The notes beneath the pieces are model-generated. The model did not search any database and was not told the origin of the DNA. It saw only the letters and a list, made by a program, of their open reading frames with translations. 64,000 nt of DNA from Schmidtea polychroa. Its lineage: Eukaryota. The translations under genes and the position numbers were made by a program. The stretch spans positions 68,758,001-68,822,000 of the forward strand of contig CM097885.1 in assembly GCA_044892525.1 (NCBI GenBank), written 5' to 3'. Positions 5,211 to 60,998 of the stretch are shown here, piece by piece; the stretch's first letter is position 1, and each line of letters opens with the position of its first letter.

Positions 5211-5470
5211 TATAAATAATAATCTGACCTATCTACTAAAATCTCTCTAATATTCTATCGAATATATTAACCTATTTTCTATAATGATTTATCATCATTT
5301 GTTATATAGTTCATTTGAATTAAATAACAAATGATGATAAATCCTTGTAGAAGTAACAATTAATAACAATTAGAAAAAGAATAAAACTTTAATTTTATTA
5401 TTTAACAGGTAGACTATATCCGAACTATTGCCAATCTTCAATTGGACATAGTGATAAATGTCATAGAACA

Positions 5471-8400
5471 ATGACAAAATATTACCGAAAAAAGTTTAAT
5501 TCGGTCAACTTTTTTATATGCCCCAAATGTGTAACGAGCGAAAAAATAAAATATAGGGAATTTTTTAATAAACATCATAATCACTTAGGGCAATTTTCGA
5601 TATCAAAAAATGTTTTATTTAAAAAAATAAATAAAAAAAAATTACAAAAAAATTTATCAAAAAATTTACCAAAAAATACTATTAAAAAAGATATAAAAAA
5701 AGATATTAAAAAAGATTTAAAAAATATTAAAAAAAATATTATAAAAGAAAAAACAGATTCTATTAAAAAAGATACTATAAATATTATTAAAAAAGATATT
5801 ATAAATATTAAAAAAGATTCGATTAAAAGACCTGCTGGTTTAATTAAAAATTGCATTCCGAATAAATTATCGCGACCTGAAGTGATAGTCATCAGCAAAG
5901 ATGAATGTGTAGCTTCAACATCTTTCACACAACACGCACCCATTACACAACACGCACCCATTACACAACAAGAAGTGATAGTCATCAATGATGAATGTGT
6001 AGCTTCAACGTCTTTCAACATATGCCAAATAGGCGGCTCTTTGTTTGAACCTATGGTAGAATCCGATTTGAACGGATCGCGTAAAACTTTAAAATTTGAT
6101 ATTAGAAATCAAAACTTAGTAAAAATAGCCCTAACATCAAAAATTGAAGATAGATTAATAGAGGAAATAGAAAAGATGGGCAATGTAAAAATTCAATTCA
6201 CAATTTTAATTAAATTTGAAAAAGATGGGGAGATCCGGGATAATTATTTTTCAAACAATGCTCAAGTTTTTACATCAAACTTTATAAACGAGGGGGTGAG
6301 CAAATCAAATGAAAAGATTGAGCAATTCACCTATTTAGGAAGCGGGTGGCGAGTAGTGAATATTTTAGAAATAGATTTTATTTTAACGAAATACGCACCC
6401 GTTAGTAGATTATCCGGACATAGCTATATAAAAACCCCATCAGCATTAAAATTAAAACATGCAATAATTAATGTTAAAAACAACGACCATAAGTGCTTCT
6501 TGTATAGCATTCTTGCACTTTTAAAAAGAGAAGAAATAGGTCGTAATCACCAAAGAGCCGCCAAATATATAGAATTTTTACCTCTATTAAATTATGACGA
6601 AGACACTGATTGCCCGATGAGGCTATGCAACATTCCCAAATTTGAAAGAAAAAATAGAGATTTAAACTTGAGCATAAACGTTCTGTCTTATAAGCCAGCC
6701 AGTTCTGATTTAGATATTTCTGAGGATTATGTAGCTCACCACCCTCATCTTAATATAGTACATCGCTCCAAGGTTATAGACGGTAGACCAATTTATTTAT
6801 TACTTTTGAGTAATAAAGATAAATATCATTATACAGCCGTGACAGACTTGGACAAATTAATGAATTGTCATGAAAATGAAAATGTAAATGTTCAAATAAG
6901 GTGTAACTGGTGCCCACATTGTTTAAATGGCTTTAGATATAAGAATGCTTTCGATCAGCATGTTGCTCTATGCTGTAAAAATCAGACTGGCACAACATTG
7001 TATACACTTCCTAAAAATAAAGATTTATTATTCACAGATTACGCAAAAACAGTTACACCTCCCTTCGTAATTTATGCCGATTTTGAATCGGTTTTACCAG
7101 AACATGAAACATATCATCAAATACATTTACCCATATCAGCAGGTCTTTTATTAATTAATAATTATACACACACTAAATTTTATTATTATTTTTTTGGACC
7201 TAATTGTATTTTGGATTTTTTGAGGAAAGTGGAGGAAATTGCTGTCACAATTGTCCTGCCATATTATGATCTTGAAGGTCGTAAAGGTATGTCTACTTTG
7301 TCTTTTGCTCAGGAGCGTGCCTTTCGATCTTCCACTATTTGTTATTTGTGTAAAAAATCTATTATTAATCCTGTGAGAGATCATTGCCATTTTACAGGTA
7401 GATATGTCGGAGCGGCATGTAGGAAATGCAATGTCTCTCGCAGGATTAATAAATTGTTACCTGTTGTCTTTCATAATTTACGAGGCTATGACCTCCACCA
7501 TATTTTAAAACATGGTCTCAGTGATTTTCCCCTTTGGGAACTTAATATTATACCTACCTCTACAGAAAAATTTATATCTTTAATTGCATATATTAACAAA
7601 TTGCCTGTTCGTTTTATTGACAGCATGCAATTTGTTAATTGTTCTTTAGCAAAAGCTGTGAAAACCTTAACTACTTTTCCTTTGACTTCGTCTGTCTTTC
7701 AAGGGTCGATGATTCACTCTAAAGGTATCTTTCCATATAATTTCGCTACTTCTTTAGATGTTCTTGAATCGACTTTAGAATTACCTCCTATTTGGTCTGA
7801 TGTTACGGAAGATCAGTACGCTGAGGCTCAACTAATTTGGAGTCAGCATAACTGTAATAATTTGTTAGATTATATGTTAATCTACCTAAAATTGGACGTA
7901 TACCTCCTCGCAGATTATTTTCAGCAATTCCGCGGTAAGGCAATTGCTTACAATGGTCTGGATCCTCTTAATTTCTACGGGATTCCCGGTATGTCATGGG
8001 CCTCAGCGCTTATGACATTAACGGAACCAATAGAACTTCTGCAGGACATGGAAATGTATAATTTCTATGAGGGAGGTATCCGGGGTGGGTTAACATTTGT
8101 TAACAAACATTACACGGCTACTTCAGATGATACAGAATTATTGTACATTGATATAAATAATCTGTATGGTTGGGCTCTTAGCCAAAATCTTCCGTATGGT
8201 GATTTTTCTTGGGTGAATAATAACTTGAATGATGTTTTACTTGAATGTATGAACACGGATATTGATAACCTTCCATATGGGTATACTATGGAGGTCGATA
8301 TCGATATTCCGGAATGTGTGCATGACTTTTTGAATGATTTTCCGCTTGCGCCGGAAAAGTTGTGCCCGCCTAATTCAAAAGTTGAGAAGCTTATGCTTAC

Positions 8401-9445
8401 GCATTGGCCAAAGAGGAACTATGTTCTTCATTGGAGGCTTCTCAAATTGTATATAGAATTAGGTGCGGTTGTTGTAAATATTCATAGGTGTATAAAGTTT
8501 AAACAAGGACCTATCTTTAAATCCTACATAGACACCAACACCACTTTACGATCTCAGTCTACTAGCGAGATATATAGGGACTTGTTTAAATTGTATAATA
8601 ACTCTCTTTACGGTAAATCGGTTGAAAATTTGAAAAAAAGAATGAATTTGAGGTTGTGTAATTCATCCGAAAAGATGATAGTATACTCCTCAAAGCCGAC
8701 TTTCAGAAAGTCCATAAGAATCGATAACGATCTGATTGCGGCACATTTAGAAAAAGATGTGATTTGTTTAGACAGACCTAGCTACATTGGTCAAACAGTA
8801 CTAGATCTGTCTAAACTGCGGATGTACCAGCTCCAATATATTGATTTGGAGAAGTACAGACGCCAATATAAATGTATCATAAATATTATTGCCGGTGATA
8901 CCGACAGTTTCTTTTTGGAAATAAAAAATTTAAAATTAACAACTTTATTACCTCAGATGATCTCAGATAATTTATTGGATACGTCAAATTACGATCCAAC
9001 CCACCCCTTGTATAGTAGGAACCTTGACTCGGTCATCGGGAAGTTTAAAGATGAGAGCAAGGGATTAGGGTATTCTGAATGGGTTTTCTTACGCCCTAAA
9101 TGTTATAGTCTTTTAGGTAGTAAGGAAACAGTAAAAGCGAAGGGGGTTAAATTATCTGGGACATCAATAACTCATGAAACATATCTAAATTGCTTTAATT
9201 CAAATCAGGTGATTTCTGTACCGCAGACTAGAATAGGTACTAGAAATCACCAACTTTTTACTTTTAAAAATTCGAAAATTGCCCTAAGTAATAATGATGA
9301 TAAGCGCGCGTGGCTAGGAAAAAACTTAAGTTACGCATTTGGGCATTATTTAGGAGTTGACGAATTAAGCGAATATGATGAGGAATTCAGTGCAGCTCCA
9401 AGTCCCAGTTTTGACGACAGCGAATGGGACGAAGATCAAATTTAA
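5471..9445 (+). CDS. Protein-primed family B DNA polymerase with endonuclease VII-like insertion
   Basis: Exo motifs IYADFES, FHNLRGYD and YLKLDV; polymerase motifs DINNLYG, KLYNNSLYGK, AGDTDS and PKCY; RDHCHFTGRYVGAACRKCN His-Me finger; 1324 aa, intact. Confidence 0.95.
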   Translation: MTKYYRKKFNSVNFFICPKCVTSEKIKYREFFNKHHNHLGQFSISKNVLFKKINKKKLQKNLSKNLPKNTIKKDIKKDIKKDLKNIKKNIIKEKTDSIKKDTINIIKKDIINIKKDSIKRPAGLIKNCIPNKLSRPEVIVISKDECVASTSFTQHAPITQHAPITQQEVIVINDECVASTSFNICQIGGSLFEPMVESDLNGSRKTLKFDIRNQNLVKIALTSKIEDRLIEEIEKMGNVKIQFTILIKFEKDGEIRDNYFSNNAQVFTSNFINEGVSKSNEKIEQFTYLGSGWRVVNILEIDFILTKYAPVSRLSGHSYIKTPSALKLKHAIINVKNNDHKCFLYSILALLKREEIGRNHQRAAKYIEFLPLLNYDEDTDCPMRLCNIPKFERKNRDLNLSINVLSYKPASSDLDISEDYVAHHPHLNIVHRSKVIDGRPIYLLLLSNKDKYHYTAVTDLDKLMNCHENENVNVQIRCNWCPHCLNGFRYKNAFDQHVALCCKNQTGTTLYTLPKNKDLLFTDYAKTVTPPFVIYADFESVLPEHETYHQIHLPISAGLLLINNYTHTKFYYYFFGPNCILDFLRKVEEIAVTIVLPYYDLEGRKGMSTLSFAQERAFRSSTICYLCKKSIINPVRDHCHFTGRYVGAACRKCNVSRRINKLLPVVFHNLRGYDLHHILKHGLSDFPLWELNIIPTSTEKFISLIAYINKLPVRFIDSMQFVNCSLAKAVKTLTTFPLTSSVFQGSMIHSKGIFPYNFATSLDVLESTLELPPIWSDVTEDQYAEAQLIWSQHNCNNLLDYMLIYLKLDVYLLADYFQQFRGKAIAYNGLDPLNFYGIPGMSWASALMTLTEPIELLQDMEMYNFYEGGIRGGLTFVNKHYTATSDDTELLYIDINNLYGWALSQNLPYGDFSWVNNNLNDVLLECMNTDIDNLPYGYTMEVDIDIPECVHDFLNDFPLAPEKLCPPNSKVEKLMLTHWPKRNYVLHWRLLKLYIELGAVVVNIHRCIKFKQGPIFKSYIDTNTTLRSQSTSEIYRDLFKLYNNSLYGKSVENLKKRMNLRLCNSSEKMIVYSSKPTFRKSIRIDNDLIAAHLEKDVICLDRPSYIGQTVLDLSKLRMYQLQYIDLEKYRRQYKCIINIIAGDTDSFFLEIKNLKLTTLLPQMISDNLLDTSNYDPTHPLYSRNLDSVIGKFKDESKGLGYSEWVFLRPKCYSLLGSKETVKAKGVKLSGTSITHETYLNCFNSNQVISVPQTRIGTRNHQLFTFKNSKIALSNNDDKRAWLGKNLSYAFGHYLGVDELSEYDEEFSAAPSPSFDDSEWDEDQI

Positions 9446-10799: not shown

Positions 10800-12108
10800 G
10801 AGCGTGACCAGTACCCTTGTGAGCATTACCCATAGGGGGACAAAATATTTTGTCGGATAGACTCAGAGTATATAGACTCGGTGTATATAGATTAATAATA
10901 ATAATAATAATAATAATAAGATATATGGCTCATTCGAAAGGTCTTGGATTGAGCTTTAAAATGAGCTATCGATTATTAATTTTCGTTGGCGGGAACTTTG
11001 AAAAAATTAAAAATAAAATAATAATATTTTTAAAAATAATAATATTTTTTAAAAATAATAATATGACCTTGATGAGTCATCGCGATGACTCATATGACCT
11101 TGGGAATGACCTTGGATGAGTCACGTGACCTTGAAAGTGACCTTGATGAGTCATAGGATGACTCAGATGACCTTGAAAGTGACCTTGAAAATTTTGATGA
11201 GTCATCGGCTGAGTCATATGACCTTGAAAAAAATTTTTCAAGGTCATATGAGTCATACTATGAGTCATATGACCTTGAAAATGTCCTTGATGAGTCATAG
11301 GATGACTCAGATGACCTTGAAAAAACTTTTTCAAGGTCGTATGCGTCATACTATGAGTCATATGCCCTTGAAAATGACCTTGATGAGTCATATTATGAGT
11401 CATATGACCTTGAAAAAATTTTTCAAGGCCATATGAGTCATACTATGAGTCATGGTCTTTGTTTCAGTGACCTTGATGAGTCATATGACCTTGGAAAAAA
11501 TTTTCAAGGTCATATGAGTCATATTATGAGTCATATGACCTTGAAAATGGCCTTGATGAGTCATGTTCTTTGTTTAAATGACCTTGAGAAAATTTTTTGA
11601 CCTTGATGAGTCATGTTATGAGTCATATGACCTTGAAAATGACCTTGATGAGTCATAGGATGAGTCATGGTCTTTGTTTAAATGACCTTGAAAATTTTGA
11701 TGAGTCATAGGATGAGTCATGGTCTTTGTTTCAATGACCTTGATGAGTCATATTATGAGTCATACGACCTTGAAAAAATTTTTCAAGGTCATATGAGTCA
11801 TATTATGAGTCATGTGTCCTTGAAAATGGCCTTGATGAGTCATGGTCTTTGTTTAAATGACCTTGAGAAAATTTTTTGACCTTGATGAGTCATGTTATGA
11901 GTCATATGACCTTGAAAATGACCTTGATGAGTCATAGGATGAGTCATGGTCTTTGTTTCAATGACCTTGATGAGTCATATGTCTTTGTTTAAATTTGACC
12001 TTGAAAAAAAATGTACTTTTAGACTTAGAATATTTTTGAAAATCTTACCGACGGGGGGGGGTACTGTGCTAGCGGTGCCCTGTGCCAGCGGTGCCCAATC
12101 CATCTACT
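10800..12108. repeat. Right terminal inverted repeat of the Polinton
   Basis: Contains the core motif shared with the TIRs of 49892-53255, a motif array, a G-tract and terminal CTACT. The inner boundary is approximate because the left TIR is absent. Confidence 0.75.
11064..12003. promoter_or_regulatory. Dense array of TGACCTTGA (NR5A/ERR-type) and TGAGTCA (AP-1-type) motifs
   Basis: More than 20 copies of each by eye, often adjacent as TGACCTTGATGAGTCAT. Function is inferred. Confidence 0.6.
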
Positions 12109-14649: not shown

Positions 14650-17600
14650 TGTTGGGCTAGAACTGATTTCTAGACCCAAACTTATAATTGTGACTGAAAT
14701 GTGTAGGTACACAACATGCAAAAAGCAAAAAGTATAGTTAAATATGAAAAATACACCAAATAAACAATAATGATTAAAAGGGAAACAACAAAAATATAAA
14801 CACAGAAATTAAATAAAATTATACAAAAGCAAGAAGTTATGCAAAATCTAACTCAAAAATAACCAAATAAACATAGAGTTACAAAAAACAAACTCGAATA
14901 ACTTGAAAGATGGTAAAAACAGTAAAAATTTCCAGAAAAACCCAGAACATTCCATAAAAATGGCGATGACCATCATAAAAGCTACTTTAAACAATAAAAT
15001 TTAGAAAAATAAATAAAAAGTAATAAAAAAAAAAAAAAAAAAAATCTTAAAAAGAAATTCATAAAACATCGATTGAAATAAACATTAAATTAAAAGTAAT
15101 ATAGAATGTTCTGGAACCGTTCCAAATCCATCATGGACGTAAAATTAACGAAAAATAATTAAAAAATAAAAATTTAAAAATAAAAACAAAAATTATGGCA
15201 CAAAAATCGCCATTAAAAATATCAAAATTACAAAATAGAAAATTCTGGAATAAAAAGAATTCGAGTTTGTTTTAATGCATCAATACATACACGTGTACAA
15301 AATAGGTATATATACCGACGCATTTTAGTCACAATTTAATCTTTTTGTATGCCAAAAATTTTCATCGAAAATCTAATTGACACCGAGAGTAAGCATTGTT
15401 GATTATATTTATTTTATGATTGTTCTTTTATCATTATAGTTCATTTTATTAATTATAATTTTATCCTTTTTTTTCATATTTGATTATTACTGAACAAGAG
15501 TGACTAGCGTCGTCGTGAATGGGTAGCATCCGCGACGCTGATCAGTCTTGTTTTCAACCAGTAGCCACATGCACAATTTTTGGGTCTACGACCCCACATG
15601 CATAAAAATTTAAACATTTTTTATTAACCGGAGGTCGTCACGAACAAATGGTTCTAACCAGGAGTAGGGCGGTAAACCCATACCGGTAGTTGGCATAGTC
15701 ATAGGGACTATGCGGACGACATAAACTGCGGGAAAGTAATCGCGGGAAACATAGCACAATAAGGCCTATCGTACCGTATTCAGTTGAGTCGGGAAAGTAG
15801 GAAAATTTTAATTAACTCGACCTTTCGGTAAACGACATACCAAAAATAAACACTTAATTCTTCTATAGGAAATATATCACTAGGAACATCTAAACGGGAA
15901 ATATCCCAGACTCAAATTAATACAGAGGCTTTCGATAGTCGGCTAATTGCATAAACCAATATCTAATATTAACAGATTTTAGTACTACTATTCATAATTT
16001 TATTCAATGTAATTTAGTTCACGTCCAATGTGTATTTTTATAAACTAAAATCCCTTCAAAATTTTTATTCTTACCTCTATGTGTATTGAAATTTAGTAGA
16101 CATAAAATCTTCAAAGAATTTTTTTGAGTCCTAATAACATTATCAACTTTGGTATCATTACTATTATCATGATTGATTTTCTAAAATTACATTAATAAAG
16201 GGTATATCATCCCCATATAATGGCATATATAAGTATATTAAACTTTCTTAATACATATTTACATTATGCTTAGAAAATGATAAATTATAAATTTTCTCAA
16301 ATGACCCCCGGAATATATATTCATCACCCAAATGTCCTAAATGAACTTATTTTAATATATAATTTTAGATAGTAATATGTTAAAATGATATTTTAGCAAT
16401 TTCCATCTTTAGGATCGTTATTATTATTATTATTAATTTTCTTAAAATTACCTTACTAAAGTGTATATTATTACCATATAAAAGCATATAGGAGTATTTC
16501 AAGTTTCCTTAATGTATATCTAACTTATATTATGTTTAGAAAAAGCTAAATTACAAGTTTCTTAAATGACCCCCCCCCCCCGAAATATACCTTCATTACC
16601 CATTGCATAAATATCCTGAATTAACTTATTTTAATATATATTTAGAATTGTAGTATGTTAAAAATGACGATTTATAAATTTTCATAAATACCCCTGCCAT
16701 AAATCAACTTATGATGATATAGAAGGATTACTTATAAATTTTCATAAATAACCCCTTTTTGATCCCTATAGTCCTTGAGGACTACCTGAAAGTGTTAGTT
16801 CAATTTGCTTCGGAACCTAGTTAACTTACATTACTCTTAGAAATATCATTGTAAAATGAGTCCATAATTTCCCGCAAGTGATTCCCATATGTGGTAACCC
16901 TATACACTACGAATTTATATTTATTAGTATCATCATTAACCTTATTGTCATTGTTATTATTAATGTTATTATCATTACTAATATTACCATTCTCATTGTT
17001 ATGATTATTACTATTATTATTATTATCATTATCTTCATCATTATTATTGATATTATTATTATAATGAATATTATTATTAATATCTTTCGTATCATTATTA
17101 TTACTATTATTATTACTACCATCATTATTAAGGTTATTATTATTACTGTTATTAGTGTTATTACCACATTTTCACCCTTGTCATTTCCATTATTATTATC
17201 CCTATCATTATTATTACATTATTAATCAATTATAAAATTCCCTCAAGTTCAAACTATTGGCTTACATTTCCACGGCATAGATCCAAAATTGAATAATGAA
17301 TAGAAATTCCCATCTAAACACCTTACAAAGTGAGTAAGTCGGCATAATTTGGGTTACCGCCAAACAGTAATATGCCGAATACTCTATCCGATGGAGGTGT
17401 CGTGCCCGAAACGGAGGGTTTGGAAATCCATTTCTGAAATAAAACGAATTTATCAGGATCAAAATTTGACTTACCCACTGAATAGCAATAGATGATCTGG
17501 CCACCTACAACCACTATGGACAGGGATTGCGGAGAGCCGAAATAAATTCGGACAATGCCGTTTTCCATAGTGGGTCTTAGTAGCATAATTTTGTTGAATA

Positions 17601-18015
17601 AAAGGAAAATTTTTTTTTTAAAAAAAAGGAAACTAATGTGAAATAACAAGTTAAACTTTTAAATAAGTTAAACAAGTTCATTCGAATATGCGATTTTAAA
17701 TTAATTTATGAAATTCTAATTTTTCTATTTTTTTTGTCCACCCTTAAGTTGTTAAACCCAATTTACCAATCGTTAATGTATGAACTTAATTTAATTCAGT
17801 AATCTGGATCTAATTTATTAAATTGGATATATGAACCAAATATGGAAATTAATTCGTAAATTAATATACTTTACCTACAAAATCATTGTCTGTTGAATTG
17901 GTTGTGTATTATGCTTGAATATAAATTGTAATGGGGTGTTTGGACATTTTGGAGTGATCGAACGTAAATAGAAGTACAAAGATTTGTTTTAATATTTTTT
18001 TTTATCATTACAGTC

Positions 18016-18396
18016 ATGTCCAATGCTGAATTAAGGAACGTACAGGTAGACCGCTCGTCGACCGACTTGAGCCTAGGAATTACCGGCGAGGGGGCAGACG
18101 AAGCCGTCCGATTGAGGGAGGACGCAGAAATCGCCCGGCTACGGTCCAGATGGATCTGGTACAAGATTCATGATTGGACCTACCAGAATGTGGTCCCGGT
18201 GATTCCAAAGGTGGAGCCATATCTCAATCATTCGGCATTGGCTTTGATCGACGCATTCGACGATGCGAAGGAGGCGGTGGACCGGTTGCATCGGCTCAAA
18301 ATATCAGTCCTGGCCGGCGAGCTGGAAGACATCGACGGCTACGCCCGAGCCCAATGTCATCCAAAACGAACCCAAGAAGACCTCAACGGGAACTAG
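18016..18396 (+). CDS. LTR-internal hypothetical ORF
   Basis: GC-rich 126-aa ORF directly after the acceptor TCATTACAG at 18013; no recognisable family. Confidence 0.5.
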   Translation: MSNAELRNVQVDRSSTDLSLGITGEGADEAVRLREDAEIARLRSRWIWYKIHDWTYQNVVPVIPKVEPYLNHSALALIDAFDDAKEAVDRLHRLKISVLAGELEDIDGYARAQCHPKRTQEDLNGN

Positions 18397-18920
18397 AACG
18401 ACTGGGAAAACGCCGACGCCCGCGAAAAACCGCCAGCTCGACCAAGGAGAGCACGGGATCGAAGGCTAGCGGGCGCGGTACGACTAACGTCCGTGTTGTG
18501 TCAAAACGAAGAACTTGTGATAAAAACTAATTATTATGTGATGACCCGTTATTGGGTGTATTGTGTGATATTATGTACTGGGTTAAGCATTTTTGATCCA
18601 GGGTTCGAATATTATTCGTTAGGTCTTAATAGTTCATAATTGTTTAATGTTTGTTTGTGTCTTGGTGGTCGATGATAACTTAATTGTGTGGATTGTTTGA
18701 TTCTTAGTAATGTTCATGACGTGGAGTATCATTATTGCTGACTACAATTTTCTATAGCGTTGACAGCCCTATAAGGTTGGGTAAGATACATAGGACTCGG
18801 TTTTGGGGGGCGCGTAGCCGAGGACTGCGACGAGGGGATTACCTTCATTTAGCATTGATACTCATAATAATGCTCGACCCTCGATGCTGATGTAACATTC
18901 ATTGATGTTATCTCGTTTTA

Positions 18921-19385
18921 GTGCTAAAACTCCTGGAAGAGATGCGAGCAGATAGGGAACGGGCGCAACAACAGGCAGAGGAATACCGGGCCAAGCTAAC
19001 ACGAGTCAAGGCCCACTGCCGGAATTTCGAATGCACCTGGTTCCCGCCAGCGGAAATGAAAAAACGGATGGAGTTGATCACTCAACTACAACTCCAGAGT
19101 GCACAAGATCAGGTTGAGTTGCGGGCCCTCCGCCTGAGAGTGAGGGAGCTGGAGGTCAAGGTACACCAACAGGACCTTGACCGAGAGGTCATTGCCAAGA
19201 TCCGACCCATGAGTGAGTTGCTCCACCAATCGAAGGGGTGCACCCCAGCAACAGCAATCCCGAGGAAAAAGATTCGGCCGGGTAAAGCGGCGCGAGCGAG
19301 AATAAGGCAAGCCAGCCAGGCCCAATTAACTCTCCATTCTACTGGATCAGAGGCTACACCAAGAGAATCGACCAGGACACTATAA
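18921..19385 (+). CDS. LTR-encoded accessory protein exon: coiled coil, ExTWF motif, Arg/Lys-rich tail
   Basis: Acceptor TTTTAG at 18921. Ungapped similarity to ORF 60271-60750. Tail PRKKIRPGKAARARIRQ; AATAAA at 19403. Confidence 0.65.
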   Translation: MLKLLEEMRADRERAQQQAEEYRAKLTRVKAHCRNFECTWFPPAEMKKRMELITQLQLQSAQDQVELRALRLRVRELEVKVHQQDLDREVIAKIRPMSELLHQSKGCTPATAIPRKKIRPGKAARARIRQASQAQLTLHSTGSEATPRESTRTL

Positions 19386-19492
19386 GTTGTCCATGTTGTC
19401 CGAATAAATCTTTACTGGTGTATCCATGTCTGTATCTTTTGATTTTTTTTTTATGATGATTATTGCCACGGGGACGAAAAGAAACCGGACAT

Positions 19493-19674
19493 AGACCTTC
19501 TATCGGTAGTCCGTGAACCCCAGTGGGTACTAGACAACTATAGTATGTTAAGCATGCTCACTTTTTGCTAGTGCCCAAACCCTTGATACAGTACCAACGT
19601 TGATTGCTCAACGGGTATCAAGTGGTCAGCTATGAATTGTATTCTGGGTTACGCTGGAAACAGCATGAGGAGGT
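19493..19674 (+). ncRNA. Conserved structured RNA motif, copy A
   Basis: AGACCTTCTA, GAACCC, GCTCAC and AGTACCAAC/GG boxes; stems GGGTACTAG/CTAGTGCCC, AGTATG/CATGCT, CTTGATAC/GTATCAAG and GTTGA/TCAAC. Confidence 0.7.
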
Positions 19675-19776
19675 AAAGATTTTTCAGTACCTGTAACCCA
19701 CCAATTGTATTTAAAATATGATAAAAATTCTCTTAGATTTATTTTCTTCAATTTTAGATTTAATTCAACTTTAAAT

Positions 19777-23990: not shown

Positions 23991-24824
23991 TCAGGATGTT
24001 GGGGGCGCCAAAACAGGAATAAAAATAAAACCTAATTGAGGTTCTGTTTTGGCCCATAATTATCATTAAAAATGTAAAATCCATTTAAACAAAAATCAAA
24101 CAAATTATAATTATTGTAACAAAACATAGAAAAAGATGGGTTAAATGATATGCAGAGACCAACCCTTACATTTCTAATCTCAGGGACGCTGGAAATAAAA
24201 AATAGTAACTAATCTGTACTTTTAAAAATAAAAATGTGCTTATGAAAAAGTAAACACTACTGACATATTTGAAAGCCACAAAAAATAACTATATAAATCA
24301 TAGTTTTCCTTAGTCAAATCACCAAAAATTGTAAGCTAAGAAGAGTTATACATTAATAGTGACTCTATAAAATCAATATCTGTTTAATATAAATAAATCT
24401 AATATAATATGTTAACGTAATCGCCAATAATTCGACAGAAAACATTTATCAAATAATCTCATATCTTTGATTTTTTTTACATTCGTAATCCGTAAAAACT
24501 TTTAACACATAAGTCCGAAGTAGATGACAACAAAAAACATTAAGTAAAAAATAAAACGACACAAAGACGAGAGAAAGTGAGTCGCAATATCTTCTACGGT
24601 AGCTCATGAACCGAGAGGTTCTTCGGGTCATTAACAGTTCTTATTGTGAGCTCATCTTTTACCGACAGTCACTTGCTAAATCCACTACTAACTTGCGATA
24701 ACGGTGTAGTGGCTGATTGAAATAATTATGCGTGGTTGCTAGTGTTGGTTACTTAGGGGTGTGTCATTTTTACATTTTAGAATACGTTAAGGGTAATCAT
24801 AATCGTTCGACTCTTTCCTAAGCA

Positions 24825-24990
24825 CCTCCATGACTATTGCAATTTAAACCATTTGTGTACCCATGGCGACGACCATGTTGGTACTGTACACAAATGTGAA
24901 AAAACAATGAGCAGGTGAGCTCTATTACTAAAACTACTCCCCATTGTATTTTCTTTTCGGGTTCTAAACTGCCGATAGAAGGTCTTACGT
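24825..24990 (-). ncRNA. Conserved structured RNA motif, copy C
   Basis: Minus strand GTAAGACCTTCTA...GAACCC...AGTAGT...GCTCACCT...CATTTGTGTAC-AGTACCAAC-ATGG...CCAT-GG-GTACACAAATG...TGGAGG. Confidence 0.7.
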
Positions 24991-25830
24991 CATTATTCAC
25001 TATGTATGCTGTTTTAAGATCATTTGTGGTCCTCAATTACGGGTATTTCCAATTATTCTCTTATAAAACTTTGCACAGGGATCCGCCCTTATTTTCCATC
25101 TAATAATTATTGTTCTATACTTCCTATAATATCCAAATTATCCTTCAAAAAATTTGAGCAGGGATTGGCCCTTATTTCCAAGTTAATCCACACTTCCCAT
25201 AATATTTAAATTATTCTGCAAAAAATTTGCGCAGGGATCTGCCTGTATTTCTAAGTAAAACCTATTTCCGACTAGAAAATACTTACGGAGACGGACCAGG
25301 GGATAAGCCTCCTCGTTATGACCCGATCAATCCGTGAGAATCTGAAAAGCCAGCTGACCTACTCACAATAGGAACCACCAGTGTCCCTTAAGCTGTGGCC
25401 TACTGGATCTCAGCTTCACTGTAACTATTTTTCATAAATAATAAGCCTAACAATTGAACCAAATAAAAATTATTATCCAAAACTTAAAAATTAAATGAAA
25501 ATTAAACAATTTAACAACTAAACTAAATTGAATAAAAAATTTATTTAACTTAAAACATTACATAAAAATTTCATATTAAAATAAAATTAACCAGTCCAAT
25601 CCACGATGGCATAAAATCGAAAATTGAGAGCATATGTTCACTACCTGACAAACGATTTGTGGTGTAAATCTGAAAACTAATTTAACAAGTTCAACAACTG
25701 AAATTTCAATCCGTATTTATACTGATTGAATTGTACGCCTACGCATTCTCTGCTACTATATCCAATTAGAATGCGAGGCAATTCTGATTAATTTTTGCAT
25801 GCATGCGTGAATGTGTGCAATTGTTTATTT

Positions 25831-28766
25831 CAGTGTTTCGAACCCCGAAAATTATGGGTTCGGGTTCGGGTTCGGGTTCAATGGAATAAAATTTAATGGG
25901 TTCGGGTTCGGTTCGGGTTTGGGTTCGGTTCGGGTTTGGGTTCAGGTTCAAATTAAAAAAAGCGAAATTTTTAATTAATATTTTATTTTGAATATATAGA
26001 AATATATATCAGTATTAAAGTATTATATAATATTATTTAATTTATTTTTGGAAAAAATTTTCATTAAGTCTAACAAATAAAATGTTTCTTAAAGAATCAA
26101 CACTTAAATGTATTCTTTGTGGAGCTAAAATTAGTTTCAGCGCAGAAAATGCCCTCTCGACGCTGACTTGTGTAGCAGGAACAGCAAATACAATCTGAGC
26201 AGCTTCATAAAGTAATGGTGTTTCCATTTTTTTTTGCTCCCAGAATTCTAAAATATTTTTGTCTTTAGGAAGCCTGGGATAGCTTTCATAAATATCGATT
26301 TCGGTTTTGAAAGCCATACAAGCATTGGATTTGTTAAAATTTTTCGGCATTGATGCTGCAGCTGATATAGAATTTTTTTCTTTGTTCTTTAGCATTTCTT
26401 CCAGCATGTCTGCTTCTTCATCTGAGGAACTAGAGATTAAATTGGAAGTGATAGTAGTTTCGCTAGTTCGTGCTTTATTTTCAGTTTCCAGATGTAAATC
26501 TTTTAATTTTCTTATTGTGGATAAAATGTGATTTTGAGCTTTGGTTGTATTATCATCATTAAGCATCAATTTGAATCTAGGATCTAAATATATGGCGGCG
26601 TTTAAAAGTTCATTATCTATAAATGATTTTTCTCGTTTAATAATATTTGAATATAAATCTGCACCTAATTTTTTATTCGTGATTTTTTGTAAATCTAATT
26701 TAAACTTCAACCACAGCCCATAAAAATCTCCTAAATTCATCTGCTCATTTTGTAACTGCAAAGTTAACTTTTAAATGGCTCTAAAATTTCAACAAAATCT
26801 GAAATAAATTGCCACATATTTTCATTCATGCTTAGATCAGGATCTACTACATCTAAACAAAAAGTTTTATAATCCAACAAGCGTTTGAGCATATCGAAGG
26901 TGGAATTCCACCGAGTTGGACAATCCAACATAGCTTTCTTTAAGCCCAACTTTTTAGCTAATGAAGCTCTATTAGGTGTCCTCAACTTTTTGGAAATATC
27001 TCTGCATGTGGCAATCTTTTTTTTTACTGAAGAGTTACTAGTAGTGTCATAAACTGCTAATTGAGCAGTATGGGCTACGCACCTAAAATGAATAATATTA
27101 CCATATAAATTAGACAACATTTCCAGACCTTCTTCTTCATTCTCAACTATTAATTCCTCATCTTCATCTTCTACTTCTTCAAGGTCAGAAACTTCTTGAA
27201 ACTCATCTCTTAACAGCTCAGCCGCTTTAAGCATGTTTCTACCATTATCTGAAGTAACTGAATAAACTTGGCTTAATTGTATATCGTAAGATTGGATTAC
27301 TTCAATTATCACATTTTTTATGTAATTAGCTGTTTGACGATCGTCAACCTCATGCATGGCTAAAGTTCTCAAATTAATTTTTCCATTGTTAATGAACTGA
27401 ATATTTATGCCAATTACGCTTCTACCAAGCCGGGATGCTGAATCAATTTTTACAGATATTAATTTTTTTTTCAACTCGCCTTTAATCAAATTTTTCATTT
27501 CAATAGCCTTATTATTTACTAAATCCTTAATATTTTCAGAATTTACAGCCAGTTTTAATGATTTCATTATCGGTTCTATTATATCACGCATGCCAGAATC
27601 TTTGAAAATAGTAAACGGGCGCCCATTAACGGTAACTAATTTTATGCAGGCATCAGTGAAATATTTTGATGACATATTAATTTTAATCAAATTGAAATAA
27701 TTTTCAATGGAAACTGAATTTGTATCCTGAAGTTTAAACTTTTTGGTGGTTTGTGATGTAGACTCTTCAGTTATATTTCGATATTCATCAGGATGTTTCC
27801 GTTTGATATGGCGACCCAGATTTGCAGTATGTTTACCTTTCATAGAAAAAGAGCATTTTGTACATATTGACTGGTCTTTGATAGAATCATATTCGAAAAA
27901 TTTTTTTAAATGGTTTGCTGACATCTGAAGGACAAAAATTTTTTTTTAATATAATTTATAATTAAAAATAAAAACCGTAAAATGGAAAATTTTTTAATTA
28001 ATTACTACAAAAATTTAAGCACCTAAATTTATGTTAAAAAAGTTCCCACAAACATATATTCGAAGAAATATATTCGCAAGTTAAAAAAAAATTAATTAAA
28101 AAAGCGCGCTGGAATAAAACAAATGCATACATAAGTTGTAGTTAGTTATAGTTACCTTAATGTTTTATCCAAGTTTTTTCTGTAATACAGTATTTTTAAT
28201 TTTTTAATATTTATTTTCAATTAATTAATTTATTTAGCATCACACTTTTTTAAATATTACACACTTTTTAAATAATAGTATAATAATCAGGCTACAAATT
28301 TCTTTGACTGTTGAAATTGGAATAATTTTTCTTTCTGATTTTTAAATTTAATTTGAAAATGGAGAAAATAATATAATCACTATAACAACAATCTAGATTT
28401 GATGAACACTAGATGAAAATGATAAAAATAATATACATAAATCGCGACGATGTAATCAATACAAAAGTTTGTAACAAAACCAAATGTAAATTTGTTCATG
28501 TTCATTCACGCACGATTTACGGAACATTCATGTTCTGAGAAACAAACAAAAAATAAGAAAAATGTTTCTTAGAAAAAAATACATTTTTTCATTTTTTTTG
28601 TTATTCAGGAATAAAAAATTTCTCAAAAAAAATTAAAAAAAATTAAAAAAATGTTTTTTTTATAGAACCTGAACCCGGTTTTTGAATGGGTTCGGGATCG
28701 GTTCGGGTTCACAAATTTGTTTGAACCGGAGCGGGTTTTGGGTTCGGGTTCGGGTTCGAAACACTG
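25831..28766 (-). mobile_element. hAT DNA transposon, full length (2936 bp)
   Basis: TIR CAGTGTTTCGAACC; perfect 8-bp TSD GTTTATTT (25823-25830, 28767-28774); subterminal GGGTTC repeats. Confidence 0.95.
26042..27924 (-). CDS. hAT transposase (Ac/ZBED4-like) with one in-frame stop at 26764-26766
   Basis: BED finger CTKC...RHIKRKH, KIDS, TSDNG, CVAH, TRWNS and SVERAFS. ORFs 26764-27924 and 26042-26761 are in the same frame. Confidence 0.9.
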
Positions 28767-30014
28767 GTTTATTTTTTAATTTAATTAATCAAAATTCTAT
28801 TTTTTATTAATTTTTAAGATTTATTTTTATAATTCTATAATTTAAATGGTTTTTGCTAATTTTAATTTAGTTTTACAAGTTTTTATAATTTAAATAAGTT
28901 TAGTTAACTTTAATTTAGTTTCATTGATTTAAACAATCTGGTTTTATAAATTTTATAATTCATCTAATTTTTCTACTTTTATTCCACTTTTTATCATTTT
29001 ATCAGTTTAATCGATATTTTATTTTAAATTTTAAATTTATTTATTTAACAATTTTTCATATTATAAATTAATTTATTATCCATTATTTTATTATTATTTT
29101 TTTTTGTTAGCTATTCCGAATGCGATATTTCTCCTAACTGTGTTAGTGATCGCGACCTTTATTTGCGTTCCTTTATTTTATTACCCGGTCTTATTTATCA
29201 TCAATGTGTTATGTACTTTAATTTGTATTGATTGGTGTTCTAATTTAACTTGGTGCGATTTTTTTGTTATATATTTTTGATTCATTAAAACAAGCTCTCA
29301 ATTCTCGGTTCCAGCCCAACACCAGTGGAACGCGAAGACTGCGAAAATGTTGAGCAGATAAGCAGCTGGAAGGGATGGATTCTCTCAACACGTAACTCAC
29401 CATTACTAAAATTTCTAATGACGGGTAGAGGCTGGTAACTTCATGTTTTTGATTGGTTTTGCGTCGGTTGATAATTGATTTATATTAATGAAAACAATAA
29501 ATTGGTTTCATGCTTACTTTAGATGAAGGAAAAATATATATTATTATAATAAAATCAATATTTCCCTCATTTCCGCTAAATTCAATCACATATTAATTTT
29601 CATTTTGTAATATTTAATTAGGTTGTTTGAAAATTTTAATTTAAATAAAATTTAATAAGATATATTTGTTTCACTCAAATTATTAAGTATTATCGAAATT
29701 AGTTTTAATGATTAGTTTATTTGCATATCTAAATTCAAATAATTATATTTAATAATGAATAAGTGTGATTACATGTATAATGAATTGTGCGAAATTCTCT
29801 TGAACGAGATTAAAAATTTCGAATTGTCATGTAAAGAGCTTGAAGAAAGTAAAATTGAATTATGAACAATTTCCTTGATTTGGTTATTTAGTTTTTAACC
29901 CTGCATTGCCACGAATTGCAAGATATCAATCAATCTCTGAATTTGAGGTGCAAGCTGCCGATCTAAAGAAGATATTTCATAAAAAATTTAAAAAATGTGT
30001 GGTATTGGGAAGGT

Positions 30015-36817: not shown

Positions 36818-39611
36818 GTAACTGTGTCGTCATACTTAGTGGTCACTGGTTGCTAACACACACACATCTAGTCCAGTACTAATCATACAACACACACATA
36901 CTACTATTATGTGAGAGTCCAGTACTAATGATTTGTGTATAGTTCAACACACACACACATCGACTACTATTATGCGAGAGTCCAGTACTATTTACTACTC
37001 TATGTGAGGATCCAGTACTATTCATACAACACACATCGACTACTAGTCTATGTGAGGATCCAGTACTATTCATACAACACACACACACATCGACTACTAG
37101 TCTATGTGAGGATCCAGTACTATTCATACAACACACACACACATCGACTACTAGTCTATGTGAGGATCCAGTACTATTCATACAACAACAACACACACAC
37201 ACATCTAGGACACTGGTGGTCTATATAAGAATCCAGTACTATTGACTACTCTATGTGAACATCAGTACTATTCATACAACCGATTACGACCAGTGCTAAA
37301 ATACAAGCACGACCAAGACCACGACCACGAACACGAACACGACCACGACCACGAGTACATCGATACAAACACTTCTCTGAGAGCTGATTCAACCAATAAC
37401 CTAGATAAGAACTACTTTAAGCTTTTAAATAATAGTCTTTATGGAAAATCAGTGGAAAATCTTAAAAAACGGATGAATTTGAGATTATGTAATTCTGCTG
37501 AAAAAATGATTACATATTCTTCAAAGCTGTCTTTTAGAAAGTGTATCAAAATTGATGACAATCTGATTGCAGCACATCTGAATAAAGATTTGATTTGTTT
37601 AGATAGACCTAGTTATATAGGTCAAACAGTTCTAGATCTATCGAAATTAAGGATGTATCAGCTTCAGTATCTTGAATTAGCTAAATATCGAAATCAATTC
37701 AATTGTAAGATTGACATTGTTGCTGGCGACACTGACTCTTTCTTCCTTGAAATTAAGAATTGCAAGTTAACTACACTTCTACCTGCAATGATTTCAGATA
37801 ATCTTTTGGATACTTCCAATTATGACTCTAACCATCCATTGTATTCAAGAAATCTTGACTCAGTAATAGGTATATTCAAAGATGAGAGTAAGGGACTTGG
37901 ATATAAAGAATGGGTTTTCTTGAGACCAAAATGCTATAGTCTTTTAGGTGAAACTGAAAGTAATAAAGCAAAAGGAATTACTTTGAAAGGAACTGAGATA
38001 AAACATCTTTCTTATCTTGACTGTTATGAGAACAATAAAATCTTTTCTGTAACTCAAACTCTAATAGGAACTCGAAATCATCAGTTGTTTACGTTTAAGA
38101 ATTGTAAAATTGCGTTAAGTAACAACGATGATAAACGACACTGGGTTGGTAAAAATAAAAGTTTTGCATACGGGTATAATTTAGATGTCAACCAAGATGA
38201 TGATGCCAACTATGAAGATGATCCAGAATTGATCGAGATTGATTTTAATGATCGAGATTTTATATGAAATAAATTTTTGTATTTTGAAAACTGTCTTTTT
38301 ATTATTTAATTAAATTAATTTAAAAATTATAGCTTTGGTTTGAGAATAAATCTGTTTGCTTCAAAAGTAATTTTATAAGTAATCGTGCTTTGATTTATAT
38401 AAATTATTATTATTATTATTATTATTTTGTGGGACTGATGGCTAAGTGGGAATTTACTTTTTGGTTTTTTGTTTTGACGTTAGGTATGAGGTTCAATTCC
38501 AAGTATGGGCGACTTTTTTCAAAATTAATTTTTACATGTTATTTCTAATATAGATCGAATCAGCATGCTTTATTTGCTATGAATTGAAATTTTCATAAAA
38601 ATCGGTTAATTATTTTTACTTAAAGGTTCATAGTATTTTCTCACCTACTGGCATAAAATGCAGTAAACAATCATTAAATAATAATTGATATTAATTTTCA
38701 GACGATTTGGGGATTTATTTTATTATACTTTGTGATTTCATTAAATATTTTGTGTTGTACCCTTTAAATAACAATAGAAAAATTTCATCTATTGACCATT
38801 TTTAATATAAGGTATGCAAACGTTATGAAATGTATAAAACAAGGAAAATGATCCATTTATAATACATAGAAACTAATAGTAGTAGTAGTAGTAGTAGCTG
38901 TCGTTGTCGTAGTCGTGGTCGTGGTTGTGGTTGTGGTCGTGGTCGTGGTCGTGTTCGTGGTTTTATTTTAGCATTGGTCGTACTCGGTTGTATGAATAGT
39001 AGTCAATAGTACTGGATTCTTATATAGACTACCAGTGTCCTAGATGTGTGTGTGTGTTGTTGTTGTATGAATAGTACTGGATCCTCACATAGACTAGTAG
39101 TCGATGTGTTTTGTATGAATAATACTGGATGTTCACATAGAGTAGTCAACAGATCCTTATATAGAGTAGTCGATGTGTGTGTGTATTGTACTATACACTA
39201 ATCATTAGTACTGGACTCTCACATAATAGTAGTATGTGTGTGTTGTATGAATAGTACTGGACTAGATGTGTGTTAGCAACCAGTGACCACTAAGTATGAC
39301 GACACAGTTACCATGGTATTGAGTCATCAATAAGTGGTCAGTTAGGAACAGGTTAGTATATGACGTAATGGATACGTGAGTGGTCAGTTAGTAACAATGT
39401 GTGTATGACGTAATGGGCACGTGACTGGTCAGTTAGTAACCATGTCTGTATTACGTAAAGGTCACCGTGTGGTTAGTTAGCAACTGACCTTTATATTACA
39501 TAATGGCCACGCGATTGGTCAGTTAGCAACAGTGTGTATATTACGTAATCGGTCATTATTACATAACCGATATCCCCCCTTTTGTATCTGAAGGGCTCAC
39601 ATCCCTCTACT
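36818..39611 (+). mobile_element. Internally deleted Polinton derivative: inverted arms around a PolB C-terminal fragment
   Basis: 36818-~37350 is inverted relative to ~38900-39311. The right arm continues to terminal CTCTACT at 39611; the outer part of the left arm is missing. Confidence 0.75.
37357..38267 (+). pseudogene. pPolB C-terminal third (second, diverged family)
   Basis: From YIDTNT onward it aligns with 5471-9445 (KLLNNSLYGK, AGDTDS, PKCY); fused in frame to TIR repeat sequence. Confidence 0.9.
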
Positions 39612-49891: not shown

Positions 49892-50966
49892 AGTAGGTAG
49901 TTATGTGCACTCTAGATCCAGATACCCCCCTATTTTTTTTAAAAATTTTTTTAAAAGACCCCCACCACATAATTTTCTTTTAATTTTTAAAATATCCCCC
50001 CTACTTTTTTTTTTAAATTTAAATTTTTGTTTTAATTATCGATTACGTAATAATTTCATTTTTTGTTTTAATCATTGATTACGAATTTTTTTTGTTTTAA
50101 TTATTGATTACGTAATATTTTAATTTGTTTTAATCGTCGATTATGTAACAATTCCTAAATTTTTAAAACGTTGATTACGTCATTGATTTTAATTTTTTAT
50201 GTCATTATACTTGAAATTTAATTTTCTGTTAAATGAGACTATGATGTAATCAAAATTCTGAAATTTCATTTTTAGTACACCATTTTTAAATTTACACATC
50301 TTTTTAAACAAATTGAGATATGTTCACTCAAACAATATATAGATAGAATTTTAATCTCTATAAAATGACATCATTATTTACTGCAAATTCATAATCATAA
50401 CACCTTAAACAATGTATTTTTCAGCCAACTTTTACATACACACATATTTTCATCTTTTAAAAAAAAAATACAAATTATTCATCTATACTTAACTCATAGT
50501 AAATAATTATATTAAAAGACATATTAAAAGATGTATTAAAAACTAAACATTTATTAAAATCCTAGAGAAATTCGATCACTATCTAATTTCCAAATCGGTG
50601 ATATGACATCTTTCTCATCTATTTTATATCCCTGTATTGACATATTTACAAACCAGCTTTCCCCATCTTTATATTCAATTTTATATAACAAAGACATATT
50701 GCATACAAAGACACACATGACTCATCATACTTTTTAAATATATTACGTTGCGGTATTTTAAAATTTAAATTTATTTTAAAAACTTGTTTTGACGGTTAAG
50801 TTGACAAAATAAAATTATTGCACATACTTTGTATTATCATATATAGTCTATCAGACAAGATATTCTGTTCCCCTAAGGGTAATGGTCACAAAGGTACTGC
50901 TAAAACTTTAACATATTATTACACACAATGTATAAAAAATCTTATTAGTGTCCACACATGCAACAA

Positions 50967-51032
<66 letters not shown>

Positions 51033-51576
51033 TTCAAAGTATTATAATTATATATAGTCCGAGTCTATCCGACAAGATATTCTGTCCCCCTATGGGTAAT
51101 GGTCACAAAAGTAAAGGTCACAAAGGTAAAGGTCACAAATGTACTGTTAAAAATATTCAAGACAGAACTTTAACAAAGAAATTCTAAATATTATACTTTA
51201 AATATACACTAAAATTTATTAACACATTGGGTAATGGTCGCAAAGGTAAAGGTAACTAATGTACTGCTCGCAAAGGTACTACTCACATTCAACGTGTCGT
51301 AAATTATTTTCAAATACAATTTCAAAGTATTATTATTATTTATTATTAAAATTAAAATTATTATTAAATTCTGACCAACTTAAATCAATGAAGGGGTAGG
51401 ACAAAAATATATTACGTTGCGGTATTTTAAAATTTAAATATATTTTAAAAAACTTATTTTGACACTAAAGTTTACTTATTTAACAAAGACATAATTATTG
51501 CACATGCTTTGCATAAATATTATTATTATTTTTTGAATTTTCAATATTTTCTTTCAAAGTATTAACACGCGCGGGA

Positions 51577-51621
<45 letters not shown>

Positions 51622-52177
51622 GTATTTCCCCTATAATAAGACCTACCTAGAAAATAAGACCTAGCATGAATTATTCGCCCACAAAAAATATAAGACCTAC
51701 CTTGAAAGATCTGTTTACTTATTTACATAACGAAAAAAATAGTAATTTTAATTCAAATTAGCCATAAATATATGCTTTAAACTTTACGTTGAATGTGAGT
51801 AGTACCTTTGCGAGCAGTACATTAGTAACCTTTACCTTTGCGACCATTACCCAATGTGTTAATAAATTTTAGTGTATATTTAAAGTATAATATTTAGAAT
51901 TTCTTTGTTAAAGTTCTGTCTTGAATATTTTTAACAGTACCTTTGCGACCTTTGTGACCTTTACCTTTGTAACCATTACCCAATGTGTTAATAAATTTGA
52001 GTGTATATTTAAAGTATAATATTTAGAATTTCTTTGTTAAAGTTTTGTCTTGAATATTTTTAGCAGTACATTTGTGACCTTTACCTTTGTGACCTTTACT
52101 TTTGTGACCATTACCCATAGGGGGACAGAATATCTTGTCGGATAGACTCGGACTATATATAATTATAATACTTTGAA

Positions 52178-52246
<69 letters not shown>

Positions 52247-60270: not shown

Positions 60271-60998
60271 ATGTCTACACCGACCAACACCAACAAGGAG
60301 CTTCGCCCGTGTTTCTCTTGTGCAGACAAGAACGCGGATATTGCACAACTTCACCTATACATCGGGGCTCTCAAAAAACGTATAGATCTGTACGAAGGAA
60401 CGTGGTTCTCCACGCCACAGATGAAAGAAGAGCGGAGTAAAATTCTGAGATTGGAGCACTGTCGAGACAGTCTTCTGGAGGAGAGCCGCTGTCAGAGGCT
60501 AACAATAAAAGCTCAATCCGAAGCTCTCCACAAAGTTTATACGGAGGCAGAACTGGTAAAACGAGTGCGTGAATACCCAATTAAGGATGGAGCAAATGTA
60601 TTCCATACCCACCACCAGTCCTCAGAATCTTCCACATCCGGTTGCCATGGGCATGGCCCACATCTGCCACCTATTCCAGCCCCAGTGCTATCGGGTTATC
60701 AACCGATGGCAGGGGCTCTTCTGATCCTATCCTGGCCCCAGTTCTCGTAGCAACCGTCGTAACATCTTCAGTAGAAAACAACCCGCCGCCTTGGAAACGG
60801 AAGCGACCGACTAGATCGGAAAAGAATCAAAAGCGTAAACGCTATGGCCGCACTCGAAGAGTCATTATCGGTGGCACGGTCGACAATTAAAGAAATATCT
60901 TCTACGCACTCAATCCCGACGAAGGAAGTTTTCGAATAGTTCCGGCCGAAGGAATCAAGTACATTTCGGATCGTCGGCTACCGGTCGACATCGATTAA
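60271..60998 (+). CDS. LTR-encoded accessory protein (coiled coil, ExTWF motif, basic tail), frameshifted or degenerate at the 3' end
   Basis: ATG directly after acceptor CTTTAG; YEGTWFSTPQMKEE aligns with LTR A ORF; alternative frame 60642-60890 carries KRKRPTRSEKNQKRKRYGRTRR. Confidence 0.65.

Follow-up and report, generated by a model that had tools for sequence, protein, structure and literature searches.

The window, a 64,000-nucleotide stretch of the Schmidtea polychroa genome, contains two solo long terminal repeats (LTRs), each with an open reading frame (ORF) for a small protein. The first, of family A, is a Burro-like LTR at 14650–19703 (+), recognized by its TG...CA termini, its ATTG target duplication, and comparison with full-length family copies. 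It lacks about 700 nt internally relative to the family length of about 5.8 kb, and seven family A solo LTRs elsewhere measure 5.75 to 5.81 kb. The second, of family B, lies at 57316–61568 (+), is flanked by an AATC target duplication, and corresponds to the 4.1-kb LTR pair of a full-length copy. We searched the 781-Mb, AT-rich genome, which is represented by four large contigs, for related elements. A primer-binding site that we take to be of the tRNA-Pro type follows 7 to 8 nt past the LTR, is the same in full-length A- and B-type elements, and has 1,057 matches in the genome compared with 0 for the reversed control. Between the LTRs lie 31 kb in the A-type element and 26 kb in the B-type element, encoding Gag, CCHC knuckles, a mononegavirus-like fusion protein, PR-RT-RH-IN, and ankyrin, MATH, RING, or BIR domains. 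LTRs of 5.8 kb (A) and 4.1 kb (B) with TG...CA ends and 4-bp target duplications (ATTG and AATC), a fusion glycoprotein between gag and PR-RT-RH-IN, MATH/ankyrin/BIR/RING cargo, and a total length above 25 kb are all Burro-like features. The two solo LTRs with the ORFs derive from Burro-like giant Gypsy elements that carry env. Burro, or GYPSM1, denotes the giant Gypsy-like LTR elements of planarians, and the parts of its description available to us give the same inventory of Gag, CCHC, MATH, a mononegavirus-like fusion protein between gag and pol, PR-RT-RH-IN, ankyrin, and BIR-RING (PMC6431247). The elements found here, 26 to 31 kb long and present in thousands of candidate copies, also resemble Burro in size and abundance as given there (PMC6431247).

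Two candidate extensions of LTR B were dropped: a near-identical B copy 51 kb downstream, considered as its 3′ LTR, belongs to a segmental duplication, and no primer site joins the LTR to a gag gene at 63107. Just upstream of the 3′ LTR, two elements lack a purine tract and share a palindrome, together with a run GGGCCCC that could pair in part with the primer-binding site. Elsewhere in the window, a near-perfect large inverted repeat with arms of about 1.2 kb occupies 50089–53138, and a second copy of it accompanies the B LTR region 51 kb downstream. By eye, the ORFs at 1–2737 and 5393–9445 are Polinton- or adintovirus-like (capsid-like, protease-like, and protein-primed DNA polymerase-like), and a shorter polymerase-like ORF lies between inverted repeats at 37209–38267. 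A complex tandem array with units TGAGTCAT and TGACCTTGA spans 11116–11980, and a family G LTR at 24743–29321 carries a hAT-like transposase inserted at 26042–27945 (minus strand).

The family A ORF spans 18906–19385 (+) and is 159 aa long from stop to stop; its coding exon is placed at 18920–19385, with the acceptor at 18920–18921 and the stop codon at 19383–19385. Comparison with family copies places the family B homologue at 60271–61030 (+), where indels near 60714, 60836, and 60929 shift the frame of the window copy, so that its 159-aa frame (60271–60750) stops short of a basic motif present in intact copies; among the matches listed, 253 aa is the commonest length of family B proteins. 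An earlier note on this DNA had described the two proteins as homologous from an ungapped match of 39-aa segments at 12 identities. The count is exact, and 4 of 400 shuffles reach it; the two window proteins give a BLASTP E-value of 1e-4, and the two-sequence match alone is weak evidence of homology. At the level of the families the claim holds, with hhalign giving a profile match of 93.7% (E 1.9e-7) between 20 A-clade and 25 B-clade sequences. A hidden Markov model built from A sequences alone recovered 68 of 124 B-clade peptides at E < 1e-3 in a search of 25,158 sequences, among which no reversed decoy matched (best E 5.5), and in cross-searches between the clades no reversed decoy fell under E 0.4. 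The accompanying statement that the LTRs share little DNA also stood, as BLASTN of the full A and B LTRs returned low-complexity matches only.

Genome searches (limited to the matches listed) and chance neighbors together yielded at least six LTR families that encode homologues, which fall into two clades: A, C, and D, with proteins of 145 to 160 aa, and B, E, and F, with proteins of about 245 to 255 aa. In all of them, an E-x-T-W-F-x-P kink lies between a first helix and a second, long one, and a variable linker then leads to a basic motif with its own helix; the T-W pair is invariant and the basic motif common to all six families. The B-clade proteins also have a CxxC (50 of 50), and an acidic hydrophobic C-terminal tail is found in 39 of 43 full-length B-clade proteins and 2 of 63 A-clade proteins. 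No relative emerged from Pfam (30 members searched), from a PDB profile search, from the BFVD viral folds (0 matches at E 0.001), or from a comparison of the B-clade alignment with 6,689 candidates of near length. A protein database search returned one match, another family member at 83% identity, and among 1.84 billion representatives this member was one of two matches; the other, a repetitive 1,468-aa protein, was judged spurious. The ESM Atlas gave generic coiled coils (0.94, with low recognition) and leads below 0.9 that included hepatitis delta antigen (0.77). The LTR proteins form a real and apparently undescribed family, with no relative in the databases searched.

Purifying selection, which the earlier note had proposed as a check, is evident from pairwise Nei–Gojobori comparisons, whose pairs are not independent. 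Across 10 A subfamilies (45 pairs), dN/dS is 0.13 overall, with 0.09 in the core and 0.07 in the basic motif (44 pairs) and higher values in the linker (0.35) and tail (0.29); shifted sense frames give 1.4 to 1.8 and the mirror antisense frame 0.21. In family B, the ratio is 0.07 overall (27 of 55 pairs, saturated pairs having been dropped), 0.02 in the core, and 0.05 in the basic motif, and the core values for C, E, and F are 0.09, 0.03, and 0.05. For the subfamily to which the window copy belongs, 15 young copies have a ratio of 0.43, a value in keeping with decay once an element has inserted. These ratios point to strong, frame-specific purifying selection on the protein in five families.

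The gene can be modeled from conserved signals in the LTR. A predicted TATA box lies at 15307–15314 (+), where all 8 aligned A copies and 8 C/D-type copies have the same sequence, TATATATA. The segment after it (15315–15394, +) holds a predicted short first exon whose last base is the A at 15388 and the first donor at 15389–15394. The TATA box lies about 650 nt from the LTR start in A, C, and D, about 535 in B, about 360 in E, about 400 in F, and 721 in H, placing both ORFs and both of the RNA blocks described below downstream of the predicted start site. Of 33 A-clade copies examined, two had no GTRAG match; in the remaining 31, the first GTRAG past the TATA box is always preceded by A at −1, while the bases before that vary. 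Donors end in G in B (9 of 10), E (2 of 2), and H (2 of 2), and in T in F. The claim that both ORFs follow a splice acceptor is borne out by YAG|TG in 65 of 68 distinct A-clade copies and by AG directly 5′ of ATG in 34 of 50 B-clade copies. B-clade coding exons carry their own ATG. Family C has no in-frame methionine among its first residues and D has one at residue 4, so that C and D seem to have no conserved in-frame start methionine other than one made by splicing. In the window, the TG at 18922–18923 would complete A|UG and is followed by 153 further codons. Because A-clade first donors end in A and the coding exons start with TG, the A-clade start codon is probably assembled by splicing, giving a 154-aa protein. 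Set against the fully spliced mRNAs of Rev, Rex, and Rec, the DNA offers a conserved donor and acceptor with a predicted split AUG.

Contigs of four sequencing runs were compared with 17900–19720; a joint from 18371 to 18916 in one run, presumed to be RNA, has non-canonical ends, undetermined letters between, and 80% likeness, and was not counted. Between the ORF stop and the RNA motif downstream lies AATAAA, a predicted poly(A) signal (19403–19408, +), found in 29 of 33 A copies, with none 3′ of the terminal RNA motif; AATAAA also follows the ORF stop in B (10 of 23), E (2 of 2), and F (2 of 8) and in none of the C (0 of 2) or D (0 of 16) copies. A second LTR ORF, A1 (18016–18396, +), begins with an acceptor, 2 nt, and an ATG. 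Members of its family end in an AT-hook-like RGRP motif, with (R/K)GRP(R/K) in 44 of 58 distinct ORFs; the window copy has a 28-nt deletion before this motif, and one of three tested A1 proteins matches Pfam AT_hook at E 0.0055, just under the cut-off. A1, in which an R-(S/T)-R-(W/Y)-I-W motif is conserved, occurs in families A, C, and D and was not detected in 15 LTRs of B, E, F, G, and H. A splice joining A1 to the downstream ORF was considered and dropped, as A1 has no conserved donor at its end and has its own stop. In B and E LTRs, a 25-nt direct repeat lies just past the TATA box with the donor after its first copy (57880–57945 in the window); both repeats end in YAG and are identical within each LTR copy. 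The repeat may delimit a mini-intron, its 3′ end possibly rewritten from exon 1 at strand transfer. Accessory ORFs within or overlapping an LTR are familiar from MMTV sag, HIV nef, and foamy virus tas/bel, which lie in U3 upstream of the start site. Here, in contrast, the predicted TATA box precedes both LTR ORFs, which would allow any solo LTR to contain an entire spliced gene.

The coiled coil that the earlier note had suspected is supported by a two-copy model, in which residues 4–87 (18933–19184, +), including the E-x-T-W-F-x-P kink, form a predicted parallel homodimer interface. Single-chain models have pTM values of 0.36 and 0.32, so that only their helices are reliable. The homodimer model scores 0.57 compared with 0.00 for the best control, its contacts agree at 79% or more, and its pLDDT is 70 to 71. 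In calibration, 21 of 30 solved homodimers from microbes attained the mark for this score, compared with 0 of 23 monomers; for eukaryotes, the figures were 17 of 29 homodimers (7 of 16 from animals; 1 of 7 without an older relative) and 0 of 30 monomers. The model supports dimerization as a parallel coiled coil, although a coiled coil may pass the test through its likeness to solved coils. The supposed Arg/Lys-rich tail proved not to be a tail: the basic motif is internal, at residues 113–133 of 153 in A (19260–19322, +; helix 121–138) and at about residues 173–192 of 253 in intact B copies. It is often lysine-rich, with 4R/6K in D and 5R/7K in F within 18 aa. Measured against an arginine-rich domain, the basic helix, a candidate for RNA binding, is conserved and selected but mixed in Arg and Lys; with as much Lys as Arg, it could be merely a nuclear localization signal. 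A pattern search, which non-canonical signals can escape, found no leucine-rich export pattern common to both clades. The matches that do occur fall in the coiled coil, in A inside the predicted dimer interface, and are missing from the D representative and from 3 of 7 E copies.

Near the end of each LTR lies a three-hairpin RNA motif with covarying stems, invariant loops, and no Rfam match, at 19482–19634 (+) in LTR A and at 61317–61470 (+) in LTR B. That the ORF adjoins this motif on its 5′ side was correct for both of these LTRs, but a third window copy at 24841–24996 (−), in the family G LTR of non-autonomous type, has no ORF homologue upstream. Across 23 diverse copies, two-sided changes occur in 26 of 31 predicted pairs while the loops are invariant, and 93% of cells pair compared with 30 to 44% when the partners are slid; the single-sequence folding z is −3.0. 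Such a pattern of compensating changes indicates a genuine covarying fold. No Rfam family reached the gathering threshold anywhere in the window, the best E-value over the terminal motif being 7.2, and HDV-like and hairpin ribozyme readings were rejected on topology as well as on this result. The motif is the only non-terminal DNA element detectably common to the A and B clades. It lies 60 to 280 nt 5′ of the primer-binding site and, in LTR A, downstream of the AATAAA that follows the ORF (29 of 33 copies). Its likeliest role is that of a primer-site or packaging signal, one that every family has. With the primer site adjacent and the loops invariant, a partner that is itself invariant, for example tRNA, nucleocapsid, or RT, is more likely. 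Its invariant CCAAC is complementary to the LTR start, TGTTGG, and might allow long-range end pairing.

A second structured block lies in the predicted first intron, at 15479–15858 (+), and is a response-element candidate. Its folding z is −3.3, and among 76 pairs in six A copies there are 4 two-sided and 12 one-sided changes; covariation is weak, with 4 two-sided changes each in the A and B clades. The A-type block is present in A, D, and H and was not detected in B, E, F, or G, and no relation between the intron blocks of the A and B clades is detectable by HMM. Family H has a D-like block (83%) and neither ORF. Between A and D, identity is 95 to 96% in RT DNA, 90 to 91% in U3, 79 to 82% in the terminal motif, 61 to 66% in the intron block, and 55 to 58% in the ORF. 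The ORF therefore functions alongside an almost unchanged gag-pol, and its divergence parallels that of the intron block. The basic helix is 18 to 47% identical between families, set against invariant loops in the terminal motif. Because it is confined to unspliced RNA and diverges with the protein, the intron block is the better candidate for a response element; linkage alone could produce this parallel divergence, and the comparison only ranks the candidates. RxRE and RcRE lie in U3-R. Unlike them, the terminal motif is downstream of the ORF's predicted poly(A) signal, and the geometry of the intron block is RRE-like.

Co-occurrence of gene and RNA, also proposed as a check, was followed in 30 elements, the first 30 of the 1,057 primer sites, taken regardless of ORF or motif. 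The motif is present in all 30, but an ORF homologue in only 21; the nine elements without it belong to family G (7) and family H (2). Six of these nine were read whole, spanning 10.6 to 12.3 kb; neither their LTRs nor the DNA between them contains a homologue. RT, integrase core, or env lies between the LTRs in 0 of these 6, compared with 8 of 10 ORF-bearing elements (10 of the 21, checked 4 to 24 kb past the primer site), the other two having no RT in the stretch examined. Over all loci examined, a set biased toward the ORF, a homologue lies upstream of 204 of 229 motif copies. With ORF and motif in one LTR, co-occurrence is nearly automatic, and coevolution on trees was left out of the evidence since the two are physically linked. 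These elements support the LTR gene being dispensable in cis, with the RNA kept by non-autonomous elements. Loss of the gene with retention of the RNA is the pattern that a trans-acting protein and cis-acting RNA predict, and it would also be expected from any replication signal and any trans-acting protein. Family G has a 1.6-kb LTR with gag only or nothing inside, and family H a 5-kb LTR with env and RT deleted internally; together they make up the 9 of 30 sampled elements noted above (for example, G000:C1:5730457 and 19489167), and their LTR pairs are 97.8 to 99.9% identical. LTR interiors can be only 55 to 66% identical on elements whose RT DNA is 95 to 96% identical, and LTR cassettes appear to have been exchanged between backbones.

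The conserved gene family, its selection, the promoter and splice signals, the two structured blocks, and their distribution lead us to propose, as a reading that we hold a shade short of probable, that the LTR protein is a dimeric trans-acting regulator that rescues and exports intron-retaining element RNA, in the manner of Rev, Rex, and the Cer1 protein CERV. Transcription would start from a promoter about 360 to 720 nt into a 4- to 6-kb LTR, and genomic RNA would keep an intron-bearing leader of 3 to 5 kb. By default, exon 1 would be spliced to the acceptor, creating the AUG in the A clade, so that the regulator, and A1, would be made first. As the dimer accumulated, its parallel coil would present two basic helices at one end, which would bind a structured RNA in the leader of their own LTR. 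Intron-retaining genomic RNA would then survive, escaping splicing or early polyadenylation, and leave the nucleus. The RNA bound in such a system would probably be the family-specific intron block and, with appreciably less likelihood, the terminal motif. The missing shared exposed export signal, the mixed Arg/Lys motif, and the acidic tail of the B clade count against a Rev-like role.

The terminal-motif version of this proposal, in which the basic helix binds that motif as an export or read-through response element, strikes us as distinctly unlikely. Motif and protein are both common to the A and B clades, the motif being the only non-terminal DNA that is, and it lies past the first donor and the predicted poly(A) signal, which would confine it to read-through RNA; non-autonomous elements also retain it. 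Replication signals are, however, expected beside a primer-binding site, and the contrast between loops invariant in 23 copies and a basic helix that varies between families (18 to 47% identity) fits poorly with a matched pair, as does a basic helix only 19 to 29% identical between A and C/D despite motifs 74 to 81% identical. The presence of the motif in every sampled element makes co-occurrence uninformative, and no export-signal pattern is common to both clades. At the other extreme, a chance open frame in a GC-rich segment of the LTR, with the likeness of A and B reduced to coiled-coil noise, would accord with the weak two-sequence match (12/39 reached by 4 of 400 shuffles). The family-level hhalign and HMM homology and the dN/dS results refute it, as frame-specific purifying selection in five families, an invariant T-W and a common basic motif across six families, and negative reversed decoys leave such an accident scarcely credible.

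A dimer acting on DNA or on promoter-proximal RNA, as an activator or repressor of the LTR promoter in the manner of Tax, Tas, or Tat, would suit a parallel coiled coil joined to a basic helix, as well as the CxxC (50/50) and the acidic hydrophobic tail (39/43) of the B clade, the latter suggestive of an activation domain, and the neighboring A1 ORF with its AT-hook-like motif. The bZIP signature is a basic region, N-x7-R/K, directly N-terminal to a leucine zipper. Here, the basic region is C-terminal to the coil, the N-x7-R/K plus zipper pattern occurs in 0 of 46 proteins, and none of 30 members matches a bZIP Pfam entry. The A and D promoters are 90 to 92% identical while the proteins are 46% identical, and A-clade proteins lack the acidic tail (2 of 63 have one); we therefore regard transcriptional control as an unlikely function. 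A further possibility is that the protein is host-directed cargo, for instance a silencing inhibitor or a dominant coiled-coil partner, with the basic motif serving only for localization and the RNA motif unrelated. Burro elements carry many host-modulating domains, including BIR-RING, MATH, and ankyrin, in the portions of the literature available to us (PMC6431247; PMC13465017), and the fast divergence of LTR cassettes on a near-identical pol fits an arms race. Against this, the other cargo genes are internal, whereas all six families keep the LTR-protein gene at its place within the LTR, and the basic motif is as constrained as the core, so that we rate a host-directed role, too, as improbable.

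Among known systems, the proposed regulator can be compared with HIV Rev/RRE, HTLV Rex/RxRE, and HERV-K Rec/RcRE. In the part of the source available to us, these have a small spliced product, a basic domain, an oligomerization region, a structured cis RNA, and the problem of the retained intron (PMC10746203), for each of which there is a predicted or candidate counterpart here. Searches of Pfam (30 members), of PDB by profile, and of BFVD linked the LTR protein to none of the three regulators, either in sequence or in fold. Unlike them, it has a long predicted parallel coiled coil, is Lys-rich in several families, and lacks a conserved, exposed leucine-rich nuclear export signal. By homology and export signal, it stands outside these families, but it may work like them. 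On the protein side, the earlier note's statement that Gypsy elements have no known pair of this kind has been overtaken. In the sections available of its report, CERV of the C. elegans Gypsy/Ty3 element Cer1 is a novel accessory protein made from a spliced mRNA, has coiled-coil segments, and is required for export of unspliced genomic RNA; its RNA element is unmapped there (PMC10309623). The LTR protein is likewise a Gypsy-family accessory protein, spliced (here by prediction) and coiled coil, a likeness at the level of description.

For Burro itself, the available part of the original description mentions no ORF, intron, or RNA structure inside the LTR (PMC6431247). In the literature searched, we found no LTR-encoded Burro protein or retrotransposon split start codon, which the Burro papers (Grohme 2018; Lee 2026, PMC13047482) and their supplements may mention. 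What seems to be undescribed is the protein family and the organization of its gene within the LTR; the class of element is a known one, and a Rev-like role is plausible. More broadly, Burro LTRs could be self-contained cassettes of promoter, splice-made start codon, dimeric RNA-binding regulator, and response element, each transferred en bloc onto gag-env-pol backbones that hardly differ, an idea that we entertain while thinking it on the doubtful side. Burro1 carries B-IAP, and Burro is reported to support stem cells and regeneration, in the portion of that work available to us (PMC13465017, for the latter point citing Lee 2026).

Should the Rev-like reading prove wrong, the annotation of these genomes would still have a gap, a protein family under selection and without database relatives in thousands of LTR copies. 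If the reading holds, an invertebrate Gypsy lineage would have evolved a Rev/RRE-type switch on its own, with every part of it in the LTR, and CERV would have a Gypsy counterpart for which candidate RNA elements are mapped. With a start codon that only splicing completes, production of the regulator would depend on the same splicing event that it would oppose, a simple negative feedback, and the regulator could come in trans from thousands of solo LTRs. For the most abundant retroelement of planarians, this would amount to an early-to-late switch like that of complex retroviruses.
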